64,000 bases of DNA, from positions 12,723 through 76,722 of the forward strand of contig NDHY01000004.1 of NCBI GenBank assembly GCA_003574845.1, given 5' to 3'. Below, one piece after another: positions 2,243 to 55,095 of this stretch. This stretch comes from a candidate division NPL-UPA2 bacterium Unc8 (lineage in GTDB: Bacteria > NPL-UPA2). Under the pieces are notes generated by a model. The model ran no database searches. It was not told the DNA's origin and worked only from the letters and a program-made list of their open reading frames with translations. Within the stretch, counting starts at the first letter, position 1; each line of letters begins with the position of its first letter. The translations under genes were made by a program, and so were the position numbers.

Positions 2243-5068
2243 TTGATGGGGGAGAAAATTATCATTAAGGGGGCGCGGGAACACAATCTCAAGAACATTA
2301 ATGTAGAGATTCCCAGAAACAAGTTAGTTGTCCTTACCGGAGTCTCGGGCTCAGGAAAATCATCACTTGCCTTTGACACTATCTATGCTGAAGGGCAGAG
2401 AAAATATGTAGAATCGCTTTCTGCCTATGCCCGCCAATTCTTAGACCAGATGGAAAAACCGGATATGGATGAAATTAGCGGACTTTCCCCTGCCATCTCC
2501 ATTGAACAAAGAAAGCCCGGCGCTAATCCCCGCTCTACCGTTGGAACGGTAACTGAAATCTATGACTACCTTCGGCTGCTCTTTGCCCGTGCCGGCACTT
2601 CTTACTGCTACAAATGCGGCAAAAAGATAGACTCGCAAGCCGTAGGAGAAATGGTAGATAGAATATTTAACTTGCCCGCCGGCACCCGCATTGAGGTGCT
2701 TTCGCCACTGGTGCGCGGGAGAAAAGGAGAATATATGAGTCTCCTTGAGCTGATTCGTCAGGATGGATACAGTAAGGTAAGAATAGATGGAAAAACTTAT
2801 AGCCTTTCCGAAGAAGTAAGGCTAAACAAAAATAGAAAACATAACATTGAAGTAATCATTGATAGATTGAGTATCAAAAATGAGAACAAGAGCCGCCTTG
2901 CCGACTCTCTTGAAACAACGCTCAGTTTAAGCAATGGACTTGCTCTCATTGTCATCAATCAAAACAGCCCCCGGGGATGGGAAAGAGAAACTCTCTTTAG
3001 CGCTACTTTTTCCTGTCCTCAATGCGGCATTTCCTATGGAGAGATTAATCCACGCATTTTTTCTTTTAACAGTCCCTATGGAGCATGCAATACATGCGCC
3101 GGCCTGGGGAAAAGCACAGAGATTGACCCTGATCTTGTGATACCTGACAAGAGAAAATCCATAAGGGAAGGAGCAATAGGTCCCTGGCAGGGCGGAGGAA
3201 GAAGAATTCGGTCTTATTACCGCTGGCTTCTGAGGATGCTTTTTAGGGAATGTGATGTTGACCCTGAACTCAAATTCGAGAAGCTTACCTCTGAAAAACA
3301 GAAGGCGGTTCTTTATGGCTCGGGAGACGGGAGATTTGAAGGAGTAATTCCTAACCTTGAGCGCCGCTTTAAAGAGACAAAGAGCGATTATGTTAAAAAG
3401 CAAATACTAAACGTTATGAATTTTCTTCCCTGCGTCTCTTGTCACGGAGCGAGATTAAAAAAAGAAAGTCTGGCAATAAAAATAGATAACAAATCAATCG
3501 CTGAGGTAACGGCAATGTCAGTAACGGCAGGACAGGCGTTCTTTGACAATTTAGAACTTGCTGGCGAGAAGAAGGTTATTGCTCGGGAGATAGTAAGTGA
3601 GATAAGTAAGCGTCTTTCTTTCCTGATAGAGGTGGGGCTCAGCTACCTGACGTTGGACCGGGAAACAGCCACATTATCCAGTGGAGAGGCAGAAAGGATA
3701 AGGCTTGCATCTCAAATCGGCTCGGGGCTGGTAGGTGTGCTTTATGTGCTTGACGAGCCATCAATTGGATTACATGCTCGGGACAACCAAAGGCTTCTCA
3801 ATGCCCTCGTGCGACTCCGTGACCTTGGGAATACCATCCTCGTGGTTGAGCATGATGAGACAACAATAAGAAGTGCTGACCATATTATTGACCTTGGCCC
3901 TGGGGCTGGAAACGACGGTGGTTGGTTGGTTGCAGAAGGAAAATTAGATAGGATTATGAGCTCCCCGCAATCTCTGACAGGAAAGTATCTAAAAGGTGAA
4001 TTACAAATTAAAGTTCCTCGTTTGAGACGCCAACTAAAAGGGATATTTCTTGAAGTTAGAGGAGCAAGAGAAAATAACCTGAAAAACATAAACGTGCAGA
4101 TTCCAATCGGGGTCTTTACCTGCGTTACCGGGGTCTCAGGCTCAGGAAAGTCAACTCTCATCGTTGATACTCTTGAAAAAGCTCTTTCTCGCATCTTGCA
4201 TCGGGCTAAGGTTGGTTCTGGAGAATATGACAGTATCTCAGGAAATGAACATATTGATAAAATGATAGTTATTGACCAGGCGCCCATTGGACGAACCCCC
4301 CGTTCCAATCCTGCTACTTATATAGGAGTGTTTACATTTATTAGAGAATTATTTTCATTGATTCCTGAGGCAAGAGAGAGAGGATACAGGTTAGGTAGAT
4401 TTAGTTTTAATATTAGAGGAGGAAGGTGCAATGCCTGTCGGGGCGACGGTATTATTAAGATTGAAATGCACTTTCTCCCGGATGTCTATGTTCGCTGTCA
4501 GACCTGCGGTGGAAAAAGATATAATAGGGAAACATTGGAGATAAAGTATAAAGACAAAAGCATTGCTGATGTCCTTGATATGACGGTTGATACAGCCCTG
4601 GATTTCTTCAAAAACATTCCGCAAATAAAGAAAAAACTGGAAACTCTTAGCAATGTGGGGTTGGGATACATAAGATTAGAGCAGTCTGCCCCAACCCTCT
4701 CCGGTGGAGAAGCGCAACGGGTAAAATTAGCGGCAGAGCTCAGTCGGCGGGGAAGTGGGAAAACTCTCTACATTCTTGATGAACCGACAACGGGGCTCCA
4801 CTTTGCTGACATAGAAAAGTTGCTGCAAGTGCTCTCCCGATTAGTAGACGCAGGAAACACTGTACTTGTTATTGAACACAACCTTGATGTAATTAAAACG
4901 GCAGATTACATCATAGACCTTGGGCCAGAGGGCGGAGATGGCGGGGGAGAGGTTGTAGCCACAGGAACACCTGAAGAGGTTGCTGTCAACGGAAATTCTT
5001 ACACAGGAAAATTCCTCAAAAAACTGTTAATAGGGAAGGGCTTTGGTAACGTCAAGGAAAGTGTGTAA
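2243..5068 (+). CDS. uvrA: Excinuclease ABC subunit A
   Basis: Two ABC ATPase modules ([35 protein letters not shown] and a second GVSGSGKST), zinc-finger Cys clusters, 941 aa. Confidence 0.95.
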
Positions 5069-7902: not shown

Positions 7903-8116
7903 ACAACGGTTCAAGCCTATTGATGCCACAAGCCCACTAAATGTTTACTATAAGTTTGTCATGTTATTACAAACACTGCCGATAAGTAAAGATAAAAGGG
8001 TTCAGGATTCAGGGGTCAGCATTTTCGGATCGTCGGTAAAATAGTTTTCTGAAAGGCATAAACTTTTAACTTGCACTTTTGACTTTTAACTTTTGAATTA
8101 GTTCTTAAATACGTAA

Positions 8117-11716: not shown

Positions 11717-12982
11717 ATGCAGAAGAAAAAGCTGAATCCCTTCAAGATCGCTCAGGCCCAATTGGATGAGGCAGCCAAAAAGTTAGGTTTAACTCCTCAT
11801 ATACATCAACTTTTAAGAAAGCCTATGAGGGAATACCATGTGACTATCCCGGTGAAGATGGATAGTGGCAAGATTAAGAGATTCAAAGGCTTCAGGGTCC
11901 AATACAATGATGCCCGGGGACCATGTAAAGGCGGAATAAGATACCACCCTGATGAGACCATTGATACAGTGAGAGCATTGGCTGCGTGGATGACATGGAA
12001 GACCGCCCTTTTAAATCTTCCTTTTGGTGGAGGAAAAGGTGGGGTAATCTGTAATCCAAAGGAGATGTCTTCTGGAGAATTAGAGAGACTTAGCAGGGGT
12101 TACATAAGGATGATATTTAAATACATCGGTCCCAAGGTTGATATTCCTGCCCCTGATGTCTATACTACACCTCAGATAATGGCCTGGATGATGGATGAAT
12201 ATAGTAAACTTATAGGTTATTATTGTCCTGGTGTAATTACTGGCAAACCTGTAGAAGTGGGAGGTTCTCTGGGTAGAGATGATGCTACTGCCAGAGGTGG
12301 GGTGTATACGGTAAGGGAGGCAGCCAGGCATTTGAAGCTCGATACTAAAGGGGCTACAGTAGCGGTTCAGGGATATGGAAATGCTGGATTGAATGCTGCT
12401 ATCCTGAGCCAGGAAATTTTTGGCTGTAAGATTGTTGCTGTGTCTGATACAAAAGGTGGAATCTATGACCCTAATGGTTTTGATCCTAAGGCGGTAGTAG
12501 AGCATAAGAGAAAGGTAGGTTCAGTTATTAATTTCCCAGGCACAGAGTTTATATCAAATGAGAATCTCCTGGAACTCAATGTTGATATCTTATGGCCGGC
12601 GGCGTTGGAGAATGTCATCACAAAAGAGAATGCCCCTCGGATAAAGGCAAAGATTATAGCAGAGGCCGCCAATGGTCCCACAACACCTGATGCTGACGGA
12701 ATTCTTTATAAAAACGGTGTATTTGTGATTCCTGATTTTCTCTGCAACGCAGGGGGTGTTACTGTTTCTTATTTTGAATGGGTCCAGAATATTACAGGGC
12801 TCTACTGGGAATTGGAAGAGATTCACCGGAGGCTTGATGAGAGGATGACCAGAGCCCTTCACAATACTTTAAATATGTCCCTTGAGCATAAGGTCAATAT
12901 GAGAGTGGCAGCCCATATGATAGCAGTAGAGAGAGTAGCCAGGGCCATGGAGCTCAGAGGATGGAGGAAAAAGATTAAGTGA
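11717..12982 (+). CDS. gdhA: NAD(P)-specific glutamate dehydrogenase
   Basis: Glu/Leu/Phe/Val dehydrogenase signature LPFGGGKGG with the catalytic Lys region; 421 aa. Confidence 0.9.
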   Translation: MQKKKLNPFKIAQAQLDEAAKKLGLTPHIHQLLRKPMREYHVTIPVKMDSGKIKRFKGFRVQYNDARGPCKGGIRYHPDETIDTVRALAAWMTWKTALLNLPFGGGKGGVICNPKEMSSGELERLSRGYIRMIFKYIGPKVDIPAPDVYTTPQIMAWMMDEYSKLIGYYCPGVITGKPVEVGGSLGRDDATARGGVYTVREAARHLKLDTKGATVAVQGYGNAGLNAAILSQEIFGCKIVAVSDTKGGIYDPNGFDPKAVVEHKRKVGSVINFPGTEFISNENLLELNVDILWPAALENVITKENAPRIKAKIIAEAANGPTTPDADGILYKNGVFVIPDFLCNAGGVTVSYFEWVQNITGLYWELEEIHRRLDERMTRALHNTLNMSLEHKVNMRVAAHMIAVERVARAMELRGWRKKIK

Positions 12983-13550: not shown

Positions 13551-13650
13551 TAAAAGCAGAAGCCAGAATCCAGAAGCCAGAATTCAGAATAGAAGAAGTA
13601 TAGGCTTCCAGCAACTTGCTGACTTCTGACTCCTGAATTGGTGGCGTTGT
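13551..13650. repeat. CAGAAK-unit tandem repeats arranged as an imperfect palindrome
   Basis: gcagaagccagaatccagaagccagaattcagaa ... ttctgacttctgactcctgaattgg. The same unit family recurs at 25499-25600. Confidence 0.7.
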
Positions 13651-25498: not shown

Positions 25499-25678
25499 AA
25501 GTAACCTCCCTATCTTAAACAGGAGCCAGAATTCAGAATTCAGGAGCCAGGAGCCAGAATTCAGAATTCAGAAGTCAGAAGCCAGAATTCAGAAGTCAGA
25601 ATCTGAGATTTGTCATTTCTATGTGCCTCTGTGCCTTTGTGCCTTTGTGCCTCTCTAATAGCCTACAGCCTACAGCCT
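25499..25678. repeat. Composite tandem-repeat spacer (CAGAAK units, GTGCCTYT units, CAGCCTA units) between the two transketolase subunit genes
   Basis: aggagccagaattcagaattcagg...gtgcctctgtgcctttgtgcctttgtgcctctctaatagcctacagcctacagcc. Confidence 0.8.
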
Positions 25679-34899: not shown

Positions 34900-35040
34900 A
34901 ATGAACCCCATTAGTAAGACACAAAGGCACACTTGAATTTCGGTAATTTGAGTTTTGAGTTTGTTTAGAGTTTAGAGTTTCATATTTAGAGTTTAGGCTT
35001 CTCTGTGCCTCTGTTTCTAGTGAGTAAGGCTCCGAGAAAA
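34900..35040. repeat. Tandem-repeat block (TAGAGTT/TTGAGTTT units, GTGCCTCT units)
   Basis: aatttgagttttgagtttgtttagagtttagagtttcatatttagagtttaggcttctctgtgcctctg. Nearly the same string recurs at 46180-46260. Confidence 0.75.
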
Positions 35041-35594: not shown

Positions 35595-35669
35595 CCTCCT
35601 CCCTCCTTAAATAAATAACAACCTTTACAACCTAACAACCTACAGCCTACAGCCTATCTACCTGAGCAA

Positions 35670-39975: not shown

Positions 39976-40043
39976 TCAGATTCTATACCAAAAAACTGCA
40001 CAAAATGCAATGCCTTTACTCATACTGTAGGCTGAAAGCTGAT

Positions 40044-40077
40044 AGCTGATAGCTATTTTTTCTTGACGGGATTTTGG
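40044..40077. repeat. 34-bp exact repeat agctgatagctattttttcttgacgggattttgg (copy 1), preceded by GCTGAWAGC tandem units
   Basis: Identical to 53304-53337. Contains TTGACG. Sits upstream of leuC. Confidence 0.7.
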
Positions 40078-41428: not shown

Positions 41429-41462
41429 ATAAGAGAGGCACAAAGGCACAGAGGCATAGAGT

Positions 41463-43101: not shown

Positions 43102-43683
43102 ATTAACGAAAAACAAAAAATCAGGAAAAAATTTCTTGAAGAAAGAGGACATCTATCAGAAGTTTTTGTTACTGAAAACAGTGCAAAGATATGGGAGAGA
43201 CTCTCATCGCTAAGAGAATTCCGGGAAGCAAAAACTATTATGTTCTATGCAGCAAAAGAAAATGAGGTAAGAACCGAGAATATGATTAAGGAATCCATCC
43301 GTATGGGGAAAAGGGTGACGGTCCCCGTGATGATGAAAGAAAGGACACTGTCTCCATCTCTTCTGACCGATTATGATGCAGAACTAACTGCCAAACGTTT
43401 TAAAATATTGGAGCCGAAGGAAGAGTGTCTTCATTTTTTGCCGATTGAGGAGATTGAAGTAATTATTGTTCCCGGCGTCGTTTTTGACAGGAATAGAAGT
43501 AGAATTGGATTCGGAAAAGGATTTTATGATAACTTTTTAAAGGAAATCAGTAGCAAAACATGCGCAATCGGAATCGCTTATCAATTTCAGATAGTTGATA
43601 AGCTACCGGTTGAGGAAACAGATATCTCAATAGATATTATTGTAAGCGAAAATGAAGTTATTATTAGCCCCACGGGGATTTGA
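43102..43683 (+). CDS. 5-formyltetrahydrofolate cyclo-ligase (MTHFS); no canonical start codon
   Basis: The only ATG (43240) would truncate the conserved N-terminus. The in-frame upstream translation INEKQKIRKKFLEERGHLSEVFV...FYAAKENE matches the MTHFS N-terminus. The C-terminal GFGKGFYD motif is present. Confidence 0.65.
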   Translation: MNEKQKIRKKFLEERGHLSEVFVTENSAKIWERLSSLREFREAKTIMFYAAKENEVRTENMIKESIRMGKRVTVPVMMKERTLSPSLLTDYDAELTAKRFKILEPKEECLHFLPIEEIEVIIVPGVVFDRNRSRIGFGKGFYDNFLKEISSKTCAIGIAYQFQIVDKLPVEETDISIDIIVSENEVIISPTGI

Positions 43684-43737
43684 ACCCCGGTCTCCAGACT
43701 GAGAATCTGGCATCCTGGGCCTCTAGACGATGGGGCC
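43665..43737 (-). tRNA. tRNA-Glu (anticodon CUC)
   Basis: Folded by hand into a cloverleaf: acceptor GGCCCCA/TGGGGCT, D-arm GTCT-AGAGGCCCA-GGAT, anticodon stem CCAGA/TCTGG with loop TTCTCAG, T-arm CGGGG-TTCAAAT-CCCCG. It is highly similar to bacterial tRNA-Glu and has no encoded CCA. Confidence 0.75.
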
Positions 43738-43789
43738 AGAGGAATAATAAATTGGCACTTATTGATGCGACACTACCAGAACACAGAGA

Positions 43790-44815
43790 TTAAGGCAAAG
43801 AAAAATGGTCATATCCTGCTGGAAAGAGCCGGTGGGAGTTGCCTTTTTTGTCAATTAGTAACAACTCTTTTTTCTTGCTAATCTCACCTATTTTGCTTAT
43901 GGAGACCCCGAGCACATTGGTGATTGGTGATTGGTGATTGGTGATTGGTGCTCTTGTGCTCTTGTGCTCTTCTTTGTGCCTTTGTGCCTTTGTGCCTTTG
44001 TGCCTTTCTTTTATGGCTGCAGCAGTGAAGAGAAGCTGATAATCCTCTCCTCCTTCAAGAGCCAATTTTAACGGAGCTTTTCCGATTTTCTTTGCCGTTA
44101 TTCTGGTCTCATCAGAGATTGGGATTGCTTCCTCATAAATTTTTGCTCCTACCCTGCTTGCTTCGCAGATATGCATAATGTCACTGGAAAGCCCATCACT
44201 TATGTCAATCATTGAAGTTGGCTTAAATTTCTTAATAATTTCTCTCCCTTCATTAATAAGAGGCAAAGTGGGAATGTGTTTGCCCGCTAACCTTGCCGCA
44301 GCAGTTGCTCCAAGGTGCCCTGTAACAAATATTTCATCTCCTGATTTTGCCCCGCTCCGATGCACGAGAAACTTCTCGGTCACCTCACCCAGAAGAGAGA
44401 TATTTATCATCATACCTTCAGGGGACCTTGCAGTGTCACCTCCAACGATGGCAACTGCAAATCTTGCTGCTACTTTTTTTATTCCACGATAGACTTCATT
44501 GACGAATGTTACCGATGTTTCCGGGGTGAGAGCAACAGAAACAACGGCATATTTAGGAATGCCTCCCATTGCAGCAATATCACTTAAATTCACCGCCATT
44601 GCCTTCTCTCCCACCTGATATGGAGTAAGCAAGTCTGATGAAAAGTGAATATTTTCAATCAGGCTGTCCGTAGTAAATAAAATAAACTTTTTGGCGCCGC
44701 ATCTGATGACCGCAGCATCATCCCCAATTCCAGTAACTACGGCAGAGTTCACAATAGGAATCCCCTGTGTAAAGTGCTTGATTAGATTAAACTCTCCCAA
44801 CTCCTTCAGATTCAT
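43790..44815 (-). CDS. thiL: Thiamine-monophosphate kinase with in-frame repeat-encoded insertion
   Basis: N-terminal GEFNLIKHF...GIGDDAAVI (AIR-synthase-like fold) and C-terminal GYDHF ThiL motifs. An 84-bp tandem-repeat block (43917-44008) is translated in frame near the C-terminus. Confidence 0.85.
43917..44008. repeat. Composite microsatellite block (TGATTGG x4, TGCTCTTG x3, TTTGTGCC x4) lying inside the thiL coding sequence
   Basis: ggtgattggtgattggtgattggtgattggtgctcttgtgctcttgtgctcttctttgtgcctttgtgcctttgtgcctttgtgcc. Confidence 0.85.
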
Positions 44816-45951
44816 CGAAAAATTCTCCTTGCTAAAAGACTTTTTCTAATGCTGATTGCGTCCTCAGGGCACAACTCGCGACAGCAAAGGCAGAGGATGC
44901 ATTTGTGATAATTAATTCTTGGGTAGCCGTCGGTAAGAGAGATGGCATCAACAGGGCAGTTTTCTCTACAAATCAGACATCTCGTGCACTTTTTGCGGAG
45001 AGGAACAGGCTTAACCATTACCTGTCGCGCAATAAGACTCAAAATTGGGCCAGGAATTCTTCTTGTCAGGCGGGCACTCAAAGGGAGAATGAAATCATCA
45101 ATGCTCACCTCCTCCAGAGACTCTCCTAAAACCTCTATCTCCTTCAAACCAGATACTCCAAGACTTCTTTTTGTCGCTGCCTTTGTTGTGGGGACATCAA
45201 AAGGTGCCAACCCTATCATTGCCTGAGCAATGGTATCAAGAGCAACTGAGTCTTTACTTGCCAGAATTACTCCGATGTCTCTCAGCTTACCATGAACAGG
45301 TCCGTTTCCTTCCATTCCAACAACGGCATCAAGAATTGCCATCACTGGCTTCATTACTGAGAAAATGTCGGCCAGCGCTTCACCAAAGTCATCCGGCTTT
45401 GGGCACCGTTTATGAATCTCAGCCTTACCGAGACCGGGAATAAGCCCCATAAGGTTTTTAACTGCTCCTGTGTATAATGTAAGGTCGTGTGTCTTGAGTT
45501 TGGGAAGGGTTATAATGGCATCTACCTCAAGTGCGACAGCAGGAATATAAAGCTTCTGATAAATTACGCCATGAGGGACACTTATCTCCCTACTATTCTC
45601 CTCCAGGCTTACAAGTTTTGCGCCAGTCATTTCGGAAATCTTCTTATATCCAGAAATTTCCCAATAATAACTCAGCCCATTTTTTATTATACCTCCAGGA
45701 CTGTCGCCAATAAGAACCTCTGCACCCTCTTCTTTCAATAACTCAACGACTGCCTGGACTACAGCAGGATGAGTATCTACTCCACTCTCTGGTGGTTTTG
45801 CGGAAAGCATATTCGGCTTGACCAGAATACGACTACCTTTCTTTACAATCTCACCCAGACCACCAATCAGGGTCAGTGCTTGTCTGACCGCACCCCGGAC
45901 GTCTTTTTCATTATAATCCCTGCATCGGACAATGGAAACCTTTGCTTTCAA
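44812..45951 (-). CDS. DUF362-domain protein with C-terminal 2x[4Fe-4S] ferredoxin domain
   Basis: C-terminal [12 protein letters not shown] and [12 protein letters not shown] clusters; 379 aa. Confidence 0.7.
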
Positions 45952-45959
45952 AGAGAACC

Positions 45960-46290
45960 TCCAGTAAAGCGCTACATCTGTAGGCGGTTTTTCTGAAGAT
46001 AATTTAAATCAAACTTCGCCCATATAGTCAAGAAAAACAACTACAAATCCCAAATAAGAAGACCACCAGAGCACCAGTCACCCACAGGGGTCAGGGATCA
46101 GGGGTCAGAATCCAGAATTTAGGTTTTAGCCCTGAATCAAGTTCAGGGTAGGTTTTAGGTGTCAGGTTTTAGAGTTTAGAGTTTTGAGTTTTGAGTTTGT
46201 TTAGAGTTTAGAGTTTCGTATTTAGAGTTTAGGCTTCTTTGTGCCTCTGTGCCTCTCTAATAGCTTTCAGCCTACAGCCTGAGCGGTTTG
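45960..46290. repeat. Approximately 330-bp divergent intergenic region filled with tandem repeats (GGGGTCAG, TAGAGTTT/TTGAGTTT, GTGCCTCT, CAGCCTA units)
   Basis: cagaatccagaatttaggttttagccctgaatcaagttcagggtaggttttaggtgtcaggttttagagtttagagttttgagttttgagtttgtttagagtttagagtttcgtatttagagtttaggcttctttgtgcctctgtgcctctctaatagctttcagcctacagcc. Confidence 0.8.
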
Positions 46291-53235: not shown

Positions 53236-53270
53236 GGGGTCAGGGGTCGGGGACTTGACCACTTGACCCC
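53236..53270 (+). terminator. GC hairpin (GGGGTCA...TGACCCC) downstream of valS, possible terminator
   Basis: Inverted repeat read directly. It is not followed by an immediate T-run. Confidence 0.3.
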
Positions 53271-53303
53271 TTGAATCCTTAAGACTGACGGCTGAATGCT
53301 GAG

Positions 53304-53337
53304 AGCTGATAGCTATTTTTTCTTGACGGGATTTTGG
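53304..53337. repeat. 34-bp exact repeat agctgatagctattttttcttgacgggattttgg (copy 2)
   Basis: Identical to 40044-40077 and, like copy 1, preceded by GCTGAWNGC tandem units. Confidence 0.7.
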
Positions 53338-53354
53338 GTTTTGGAATTTACCTA

Positions 53355-53975: not shown

Positions 53976-54135
53976 TAAATCACTCCAGGAAGTATGGGAC
54001 TGGAAAGATAAGGTCTACCGGGAGACAAAGCATCTTTCAGTAAGAGAAACAGCCAAGAAGATCCATGAGGATGTCCAGCAGATTAAGAAAAAATACGGGT
54101 TGAAACTCAAAACGCTTCATCCGTTACAGAAATAA
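53965..54135 (+). CDS. Small protein (56 aa) translationally coupled to the PIN gene
   Basis: Read by hand: ATG at 53965 with GGAGGTGA SD, overlapping the PIN stop. MKVDKSLQEVWDWKDKVYRETKHLSVRETAKKIHEDVQQIKKKYGLKLKTLHPLQK. Confidence 0.4.
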   Translation: MKVDKSLQEVWDWKDKVYRETKHLSVRETAKKIHEDVQQIKKKYGLKLKTLHPLQK

Positions 54136-54139
54136 GCTG

Positions 54140-54248
54140 CAAAAATAAACTTATTCAACGATATTTAAGGCATTCAGATGTAACAACGACGTTGAGGTAT
54201 TATATGGATGTGTTTCCGGAGGACCTGGAAGAGGCGGCAGAGGTGTGA
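54140..54248 (+). pseudogene. Tyrosine-recombinase (integrase) C-terminal fragment
   Basis: The in-frame translation ...LIQRYLRHSDVTTTLRYYMDVFPEDLEEAAEV carries the R-H-x-x-x-TT-x-x-Y catalytic-tail motif, but only about 35 codons remain after an upstream stop. Confidence 0.5.
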
Positions 54249-54558
54249 GCAGAGAGGTAATCAAAACTTACAGATATAGTTAGAAATAGATGAAGTACTT
54301 CGTCGGGCACACAAGTCCTAAAGACTTGGGTCGTGCCAATTTGGGAGTATAAATCCCATTAGAAGTATCAATTTTGCTACCCACTAAGAAGACATAATTT
54401 CTAACGGGGTAAACAAACTCAAATTTCAAAACTCAAAACTCAAAAGAAAGAGGAGAAAAGGACGGTTCACTTAATTGCATCAAAAAGGAAGGAAGAGAAG
54501 GGATGGAAATTCTATTTTTATTTCCACTTAAAGGCAGAGAAAAGAAAAGGAGAGTGAT

Positions 54559-55095
54559 ATGGCAAGAAGAAAGACTGATGGCAAGATGATATCATGTAAG
54601 AAATGCGGAAAACCTTTAAGGTCTTTCATTTTTAAGTCATCGACATGGAAACATGAATGCGATGAATGCGACGACGGATACTATTGCGGAGCCTGTATTA
54701 AGAAGTGGGAAAGGACACTTGTATGCGATAAATGTTATAAAGCGCTTACGATGTTTAAGATTACAAGTGAGAGCAAATTTGTAGGATACAAAGTAGTGAG
54801 TGAGTTTAATTTAATCATAATTGAAGCGATATTCACATCCATGTCAGAGGTGAAAGAAGAAATGACGAGGCAGGCCTTTAGGATAAAGGCAAATGCGGTA
54901 ACAAATTTCAAAATCGTGGAACAAAAAGAAACAACTGAGGACGAGACCTATGTTCCAAAGTATAAGTATACAAAAGAAACATCTCCTATTAGATTCGAAT
55001 TCGAAAAAGAACGAAGCCGAAGAACTTACACACGCTATGGAGCCCAGGGTATGCCTGTCATATTACAGAAGTGTTCGAGGTCAGCAAATGGATAA
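54559..55095 (+). CDS. Double zinc-ribbon protein fused to a YbjQ/DUF74-like domain
   Basis: N-terminal CKKCG...CDECDDGYYCGACIKK...CDKCYK, then FRIKANAVTNFKIVE resembling the YbjQ GANAVVGVRF motif. Confidence 0.5.
   Translation: MARRKTDGKMISCKKCGKPLRSFIFKSSTWKHECDECDDGYYCGACIKKWERTLVCDKCYKALTMFKITSESKFVGYKVVSEFNLIIIEAIFTSMSEVKEEMTRQAFRIKANAVTNFKIVEQKETTEDETYVPKYKYTKETSPIRFEFEKERSRRTYTRYGAQGMPVILQKCSRSANG

Follow-up and report, generated by a model that had tools for sequence, protein, structure and literature searches.

In the 64,000-nt window examined here (the whole stretch from positions 12,723 to 76,722 of contig NDHY01000004.1 of the candidate division NPL-UPA2 bacterium Unc8; all positions below are those of the window), the thiamine-monophosphate kinase gene thiL (43790–44815, minus strand) carries a block of perfect 7- and 8-nt tandem repeats that is translated as part of the enzyme. 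It is very probable that this block is a young, repeat-borne, in-frame insertion, tolerated rather than used, that has made a naturally variable surface loop of ThiL longer. The insert is modelled as a disordered loop, the conserved residues of the enzyme are intact, the codons on both sides are under purifying selection, and the same loop has received independent repeat insertions in relatives. The preliminary description of this DNA had offered a tolerated insertion as its second choice, after a phase-variable contingency locus, and this second choice is the one that the evidence favors. According to this reading, a composite of array modules like those found in nearby spacers, later amplified to perfect runs, would have replaced 30 nt of thiL by 105 nt, and chance and selection together would have allowed the event to survive. 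Between two β-strands of the C-terminal domain, the 25 extra residues would then form a disordered coil that loops out, leaving the catalytic core and the GYDHF C-terminus intact.

The ThiL protein and its inserted segment

The 341-amino-acid (aa) product of the thiL open reading frame (ORF) is a ThiL of the PurM/AIRS superfamily, for which ATP-dependent phosphorylation of thiamine monophosphate is predicted. Its score with the equivalog model TIGR01379 was 261.8 bits against a cut-off of 184.15, and the best-matching stretch, residues 7–267, ends at the insert. The Pfam domains AIRS (PF00586, 103.5 bits) and AIRS_C (PF02769, 26.6 bits) were detected, and the Aquifex ThiL structures 1vqv and 3c9r in the PDB matched with an E value of about 1e-44. 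All of the profile and PDB sequence matches end at residues 265–267, just ahead of the repeats. An AlphaFold2 model based on an alignment of 93 sequences had a mean predicted local distance difference test (pLDDT) value of 91.8 and a predicted template modeling score of 0.89, and its top Foldseek matches were the AaThiL structures 3c9u, 3c9t, and 3c9r (E value, 5e-33). All 31 invariant columns of this alignment are kept in the window protein, including D32, D33, D50, D79, D204, D207, G334, and H337, and the C-terminal G-Y-x-H-F motif is present.

The start of thiL overlaps the stop of the upstream DUF362/Fer4 gene (44812–45951), and a tRNA-Glu(CTC) gene lies on the same strand 52 nt downstream (43664–43738). 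The latter arrangement is kept in a repeat-free sister species (contig L001, about 1985–2055). This tRNA was the one Rfam match, with nothing in the block, and a promoter and terminator scan of 43500–44300 found neither element on the thiL strand in or beside the block. An internal promoter serving the tRNA-Glu gene had been considered and was dropped, the scan being empty on that strand.

Tandem Repeats Finder (TRF) resolved the block into three abutting minus-strand arrays, each with 100% matches and no indels. These are a heptamer array at 43916–43950 (period 7, 5.0 copies, plus-strand unit ATTGGTG), an octamer array at 43948–43971 (period 8, 3.0 copies, plus-strand unit GTGCTCTT), and another octamer array at 43972–44007 (period 8, 4.5 copies, plus-strand unit CTTTGTGC). 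On the coding strand they are read in the order (AAGGCACA)×4.5, (AAGAGCAC)×3, and (CACCAAT)×5. The position of the block (43917–44008) and the unit counts in the preliminary description were essentially right, and its register of 4 + 3 + 4 whole units (84 nt) is also valid, the third TGCTCTTG there reading TGCTCTTC; however, the periodic tract found by TRF measures 92 nt (43916–44007) rather than 84. No other perfect array of period 7 or 8 with at least three copies occurs in the window, and none occurred in 30 Markov shuffles, which places the tract well outside chance expectation. The heptamer array is free of stop codons in the coding orientation only. RNA folding of the block gave no structure beyond that of shuffled sequences (z = 0.14), and the sole inverted pair flanking the heptamers is the 6-nt GAGCAC/GTGCTC.

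Comparison with orthologs established that the block is an insertion. The nearest orthologs, P0002 to P0008, are 72–80% identical to the window ThiL, and all lack the block. Their lengths are 316 aa for P0002 (80% identity), 315 aa for P0003 and P0005, and 316 aa for P0006 and P0008; P0004 reaches 329 aa owing to an N-terminal extension. At the DNA level, the orthologous contigs L001, L011, and L013 have about 30 nt at the insert site, compared with 105 nt in the window. In L001 these read AGG AAA GAT GGC AAA CCT ATT TCT CTG CCC, which encodes RKDGKPISLP. Four residues bordering the repeats (R268I, D270E, L301V, and P302L) are derived in the window lineage, and the replaced segment was therefore taken, from the protein alignment and the DNA comparison, as codons 268–302 (43910–44014, minus strand). 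Thirty-five codons thus stand in place of 10, a net gain of 75 nt or 25 codons. The proposed in-frame insertion between the EDYQLLFT region and the GYDHF motif is therefore borne out by repeat-free orthologs that are shorter at this point, although its size is 25 aa net instead of the 28 aa first given. As for the sources compared, a scan of genome contigs yielded one ortholog (L001), a protein-pattern scan of JGI metagenome contigs revealed no close relatives (best identity, 41%) and added neither strains nor read-level variants, and an exact-sequence look-up of P0123 matched no contig.

The segment between T264 and I309 in which the insert lies is the least conserved stretch of ThiL, with a consensus consisting entirely of "x". 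This linker is 44 aa long in the window protein, compared with a median of 21 aa, and mostly 12–23 aa, in 92 homologs. In the AlphaFold2 model, the blocks covering residues 271–300 had pLDDT values of 56, 51, and 62 and were coil, whereas the flanking blocks had values of 89 and 95; strands were modelled on either side of the insert, at residues 261–265 and 299–313. A model of the repeat-free ortholog P0002 has a short, confident coil at the same linker, between strands 261–265 and 281–288, indicating that the insert lengthens a pre-existing loop. The 25 extra residues are thus probably a floppy stretch in a variable surface loop, which agrees with the surface-loop location that structure modeling had been suggested to check.

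Linkers of 31–39 aa are found at the same loop in five other homologs with 46–51% identity (P0017, P0018, P0023, P0024, and P0025). The DNA of two of these five was examined (P0025, contig L018; P0018, contig L019), and in both the inserts consist of GC-rich palindromic elements. The L018 insert contains two copies of CCCCTCCCATCAAGGGAGGGG and the L019 insert contains CTCTCCCCCCGGGGGGAGAGGGAAGGGTGAGGG. A copy of the element is also present in the spacer directly upstream of each gene, the elements lying at 689–743 and 1519–1612 in L018 and at 674–707 and 1544–1577 in L019. The ThiL linker after EDYxLLFT is therefore a recurrent site at which three unrelated kinds of repeat DNA have been fixed in frame.

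The composition of the insert raises the question of a use for it. The inserted residues are hydrophilic, with an abundance of K, R, H, T, N, Q, S, and P. The 30-residue repeat-encoded stretch includes five His residues, besides many of Lys and Arg, and is a fixed feature of the sampled strains, all of which have it, as might be expected of a His/Lys-rich metal-binding or interaction loop recruited for the hyperalkaline habitat. However, the repeat units determine its sequence, no other ThiL sequence examined contains it, it is disordered in the model, and the peptides encoded by the other insertions in this loop are unrelated. We therefore regard recruitment as highly unlikely.

Intergenic arrays and the origin of the block

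The window is rich in short tandem arrays. TRF reported 16 rows of period 7 against 1.85 in shuffled sequences (9-fold) and 8 rows of period 8 against 1.35 (6-fold). Apart from the thiL block, the period-7/8 arrays of at least 2.5 copies are all located in gaps of the ORF map, a greedy, heuristic map with 89.4% coding. Composite arrays occupy ten spacers, about one in five in the window: 7997–8096, 13557–13636, 25520–25678, 34916–35015, 35616–35660, 40031–40054, 41434–41461, 46056–46283, 53240–53310, and 54415–54445. All of these intergenic 7/8-nt arrays are imperfect, and their units drift gradually along the array. Arrays are also present in the sister species (L014, 158–312; L013, 3997–4243; L011, 5463–5559). 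The group to which Unc8 belongs, Ca. Lithacetigenota (NPL-UPA2), comes from The Cedars springs, and the metagenome-assembled genome (MAG) is a reduced one of about 1 Mb (PMC6305446, PMC9751293); neither of these two papers on the candidate phylum mentions the repeats, and thiamine is likewise unmentioned in both.

The preliminary description held that the unit types of the block are otherwise confined to intergenic regions. This is correct for the class of 7/8-nt arrays and for the TTTGTGCC-type octamer: the octamer RAGGCACA has 11 hits in the window against 0.71 expected and is tandem at four intergenic sites (25622–25653, 34916–34931, 41435–41458, and 46240–46255). It does not hold for the other two unit types, which have no further tandem copy in the window, with the sole exception of a degenerate paralog at 46056–46082 (octamer-2 part, 46059–46074).

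This paralog is an inverted counterpart of the heptamer–octamer junction of the block. It is located 2.1 kb away, on the minus strand, in the spacer upstream of the DUF362–thiL operon, and reads GGTGACTGGTGCTCTGGTGGTCTTCTT against GGTGATTGGTGCTCTTGTGCTCTTCTT on the thiL plus strand (24 of 27 identities). The 23-nt junction sequence AAGAGCACAAGAGCACCAATCAC matches 46059–46081 on the opposite strand with three mismatches, where 0.00 matches were expected, and the Smith-Waterman score of 39 for 46056–46082 exceeds those of shuffled queries (26.1 ± 2.7; maximum, 34). A homologous array is present at the same spot in a sister species (L014, 285–312). The L013 spacer upstream of the DUF362–thiL operon contains arrays of CCAATCA and CAAGAGCG, and CCAATCA, with 2.3 copies at 3997–4012, is the same heptamer as that of the thiL block. 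The octamer–octamer junction, which reads CTTCTTTGTGCC..., also has a counterpart in the window spacer. At 46236–46256 (plus strand), the first 20 nt, CTTCTTTGTGCCTCTGTGCC, agree with CTTCTTTGTGCCTTTGTGCC on the thiL plus strand at 19 of 20 positions in an alignment made by eye and left unscored. For the octamer part of the block, the local alignment that was scored lies at 25617–25656 (score, 41). These three sites are partial paralogs of 20–40 nt, and no full-length second copy of the block exists within the window.

Based on these paralogs, the block appears to be a patchwork of spacer modules that existed beforehand, one of which is inverted, with later amplification, and a copied origin appears more likely than slippage from thiL's own sequence. 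The age of the block is indicated by its uniformity. The units of the block are perfect (12.5 of 12.5). The synonymous divergence (dS) to the sister species is about 0.27–0.31. Had a 92-nt tract evolved neutrally since the split, about 12 substitutions would be expected in it, and none was seen. This suggests that the event is much younger than the sister-species split, or that the units are being kept uniform.

A more specific scenario, to which we give a minor but real chance, is that the block is a dated birth record of a lineage-specific repeat-making process. The plus strand of the block would be the reverse complement of the spacer end 46056–46082, with the opposite end, 46236–46256, linked to it through a CTTCTT microhomology, and the units would have been amplified to perfection after this joining. 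Inverted AAGAAG and CTTCTT are present at the spacer ends themselves. If this were true, the 7/8-nt composite arrays in the spacers of Ca. Lithacetigenota would spread by template switching, that is, by copying, followed by local expansion, and the mechanism could be reconstructed because the sister species keep the pre-insertion state of thiL. In a weaker variant of this scenario, the array would make thiL phase-variable.

Several further observations concern the spacer arrays. Longer modules are common to different spacers, and the arrays thus behave partly as a dispersed repeat family. The first module (34947–35015 and 46168–46256) runs from TTTGAGT/TTTAGAG heptamers through GGCTTCT to TGTGCCTC octamers; the second (25640–25678 and 46245–46283) consists of TGTGCCTCTCTAATAGC and then CAGCCTACAGCCT; the third (40031–40075 and 53290–53340) is GCTGATAGCTATTTTTTCTTGACGGGATTTTGGG and includes the −35-like TTGACG. 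The arrays (CAGAAKC)n at 13557–13590 and (ACTTCTG)n at 13614–13636 are mutual reverse complements 24 nt apart, and this region (13557–13636), between two same-strand genes, could form a long imperfect hairpin. The entire 34-nt spacer between the aconitase-family gene and purC (41429–41462) is a (GAGGCACA)-type octamer array that ends 4 nt before the ATG, and its GAGG cores may act as the ribosome-binding site. A 974-nt region at 53976–54949 has no ORF of at least 70 aa in the heuristic map and contains 4.4 copies of AAACTCA at 54415–54445; it possibly includes small cysteine-rich ORFs.

Strain comparison and probable retention of function

The 121-nt stretch 43900–44020, which includes the whole block, occurs exactly in five other DNA assemblies of this species: BBPG01001950.1 (L003), QLUH01000005.1 (L004), QLUG01000043.1 (L005), QLUF01000002.1 (L020), and BBPD01016393.1 (L021). 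Their identity to the window is 99.5–100%, the differences being single-nucleotide polymorphisms (SNPs). In addition, the identical 341-aa protein is recorded for Unc8 (RII00420.1) and several MAGs. An assembly artefact, which the preliminary description had allowed for, would be a mis-joined or collapsed repeat, and repeats can indeed be mishandled by short-read metagenome assemblies. However, a read is longer than the 92-nt tract, the same block is present in six assemblies (including the window) with SNPs elsewhere, and neither the reading frame nor the conserved C-terminus is disrupted. The block is therefore not an assembly artefact, and we attach almost no probability to that explanation.

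The idea of a contingency locus is that slippage of 7- or 8-nt units toggles thiL by frameshift and generates thiamine-auxotrophic subpopulations. Its premise, that a single-unit slip would shift the frame, was confirmed by simulation: the gain or loss of one heptamer or octamer truncates ThiL at 303–312 aa, with the loss of the last strands and of the GYDHF end with its invariant G334 and H337, whereas a change of one heptamer plus one octamer (15 nt) or of three heptamers keeps the frame. The tract is thus a non-triplet one in an ORF, as at contingency loci, and perfect units are the state most prone to slippage. Moreover, an intergenic array 2 kb away does vary between strains. On the other hand, the tracts comprise only three to five units, the block occupies codons 270–300 of 341 (79–88% of the ORF) and not a site near the 5′ end, and ThiL is a housekeeping biosynthetic enzyme rather than a surface, restriction-modification, or host-interaction protein. 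Unit-number variation was absent among the six consensus assemblies, the five others coming from several samples; at 99.5–100% identity these are near-clonal and most intergenic arrays are invariant too, so that this is a weak test. Only one intergenic array varies in the 18-kb overlap, and the invariance of the thiL block accordingly says little. Taken together, the short tract, its position, and the type of gene make a contingency locus quite unlikely.

The variable array is located at 46118–46163 and is the one indel polymorphism among the strains in 18 kb. A 14-nt heptamer pair is shifted across the hairpin CCCTGAATCAAGTTCAGGG: the window has the pair on one side, whereas L003, L004, L005, and L020 have it on the other.

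Selection on thiL was estimated against P0002. The ratio of nonsynonymous to synonymous substitution rates (dN/dS) was 0.24 for codons 1–267 and 0.29 for the 41 codons past the insert, and the window lineage had 13 derived substitutions, compared with 9 for the sister lineage. As four of these 13 fall at the insert edges, there is no acceleration elsewhere in ThiL. These tests support, but do not prove, retained function.

An alternative is that the insertion crippled or inactivated ThiL and that thiL is an early pseudogene, still open for lack of time. The perfect units point to a recent event, and the genome represented by the MAG, at about 1 Mb, is a reduced one (PMC6305446). In strain QLUF, 7 of the 16 SNPs found over 18.2 kb fall in thiL, and N76 and D127, both nearly invariant, are among the positions changed. 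However, the ORF is intact in every assembly, all of the invariant ThiL residues are kept, derived substitutions are not in excess beyond the insert edges, the start overlap with the upstream gene is preserved, and relatives tolerate other insertions in the same loop. Furthermore, the QLUF changes, four synonymous and three nonsynonymous, are what would be expected of a recombined functional allele, and D127N is shared with ortholog P0005. Inactivation of ThiL thus seems quite unlikely.

The SNPs of QLUF deserve a description of their own. The 7 SNPs in thiL between the window and QLUF01000002.1 cluster in 400 bp (44183–44589), the nonsynonymous ones being N76S, A120T, and D127N, and the repeat block lies outside the cluster. 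The cluster resembles a recombination tract from a diverged allele.

Some points weigh against a copied insertion that is tolerated by a functional enzyme. The dN/dS and relative-rate tests average the time before and after the insertion, and we infer retained enzymatic function from conservation only. The QLUF protein (P0122) is substituted at two nearly invariant positions, N76S and D127N. Finally, ancestral thiL contains GGCAAA and CCTAT, which weakly resemble the units GGCACAAA and CCAATCA, and the block might have arisen by in-situ slippage from such local seeds (GGCAAA to GGCACAAA, CCTAT to CCAAT). An in-situ origin is kept as a minority possibility, since a copied origin agrees better with the junction-spanning paralogs.

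Known repeat systems and biological meaning

Over-represented heptamer repeats are known as the cyanobacterial STRR and as GGGAATC in Xanthomonas, GGGGA(C/T)T in Nostoc, and TAACTGA in marine Beggiatoaceae; such repeats are mostly intergenic, and the intragenic cases are restricted to the stop-free orientation, most of them being at protein termini (PMC4692102, PMC4679880). The window resembles these simple-sequence-repeat systems in that tandem units of about 7 nt are enriched over chance, mostly intergenic, and variable between close relatives, with a minority in ORFs where they are stop-free. It differs from them in that many different 7- and 8-nt units are joined in composite arrays with no one dominant unit, in that the host is a Ca. 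Lithacetigenota bacterium of about 1 Mb, and in that the intragenic case is inside a conserved enzyme and not at a terminus or in a hypothetical ORF. The thiL block belongs to a known kind, the heptamer repeats, of which it is an unusual case: composite, perfect, and situated within a conserved enzyme. The plus-strand unit TTGGTGA is one mismatch away from the STRR2 unit, TTGGTCA, a resemblance that may serve as a lead.

Rickettsia palindromic elements (RPE) and other MITEs (transposable elements of the miniature inverted-repeat type) are known to be inserted in frame and translated in housekeeping proteins at positions compatible with the fold (PMC10969869). The thiL block is similar in that otherwise intergenic repeat DNA is translated as an extra peptide of a housekeeping protein at a fold-compatible position, and the palindromic insertions in the ThiL proteins of L018 and L019 are close analogues of RPE and MITEs. 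Unlike RPE, which are palindromic elements of about 100–150 bp with a conserved peptide, the block in the window is a 92-nt tandem microsatellite composite with neither a palindromic architecture nor terminal inverted repeats and without significant structure. Compared with the contingency loci of Haemophilus, Neisseria, and Campylobacter, the block shares a tract of non-triplet units in an ORF in which a unit change shifts the frame, but the thiL tracts are short and near the 3′ end of a core metabolic gene and do not vary in unit number among the near-clonal assemblies.

The thiL case alone is a small result. It indicates that non-triplet microsatellites can be fixed in a conserved enzyme if their summed length keeps the frame and the loop is permissive, and it means for annotation and binning that this thiL should not be treated as frameshifted or chimeric. 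More broadly, dense composite 7/8-nt arrays are carried in the spacers of a streamlined, roughly 1-Mb genome whose candidate phylum is serpentinite-hosted. These genome-wide intergenic arrays and their possible templated origin are more interesting than the thiL insertion itself, and the birth of such arrays can be approached through the thiL copy, whose ancestral state is known.

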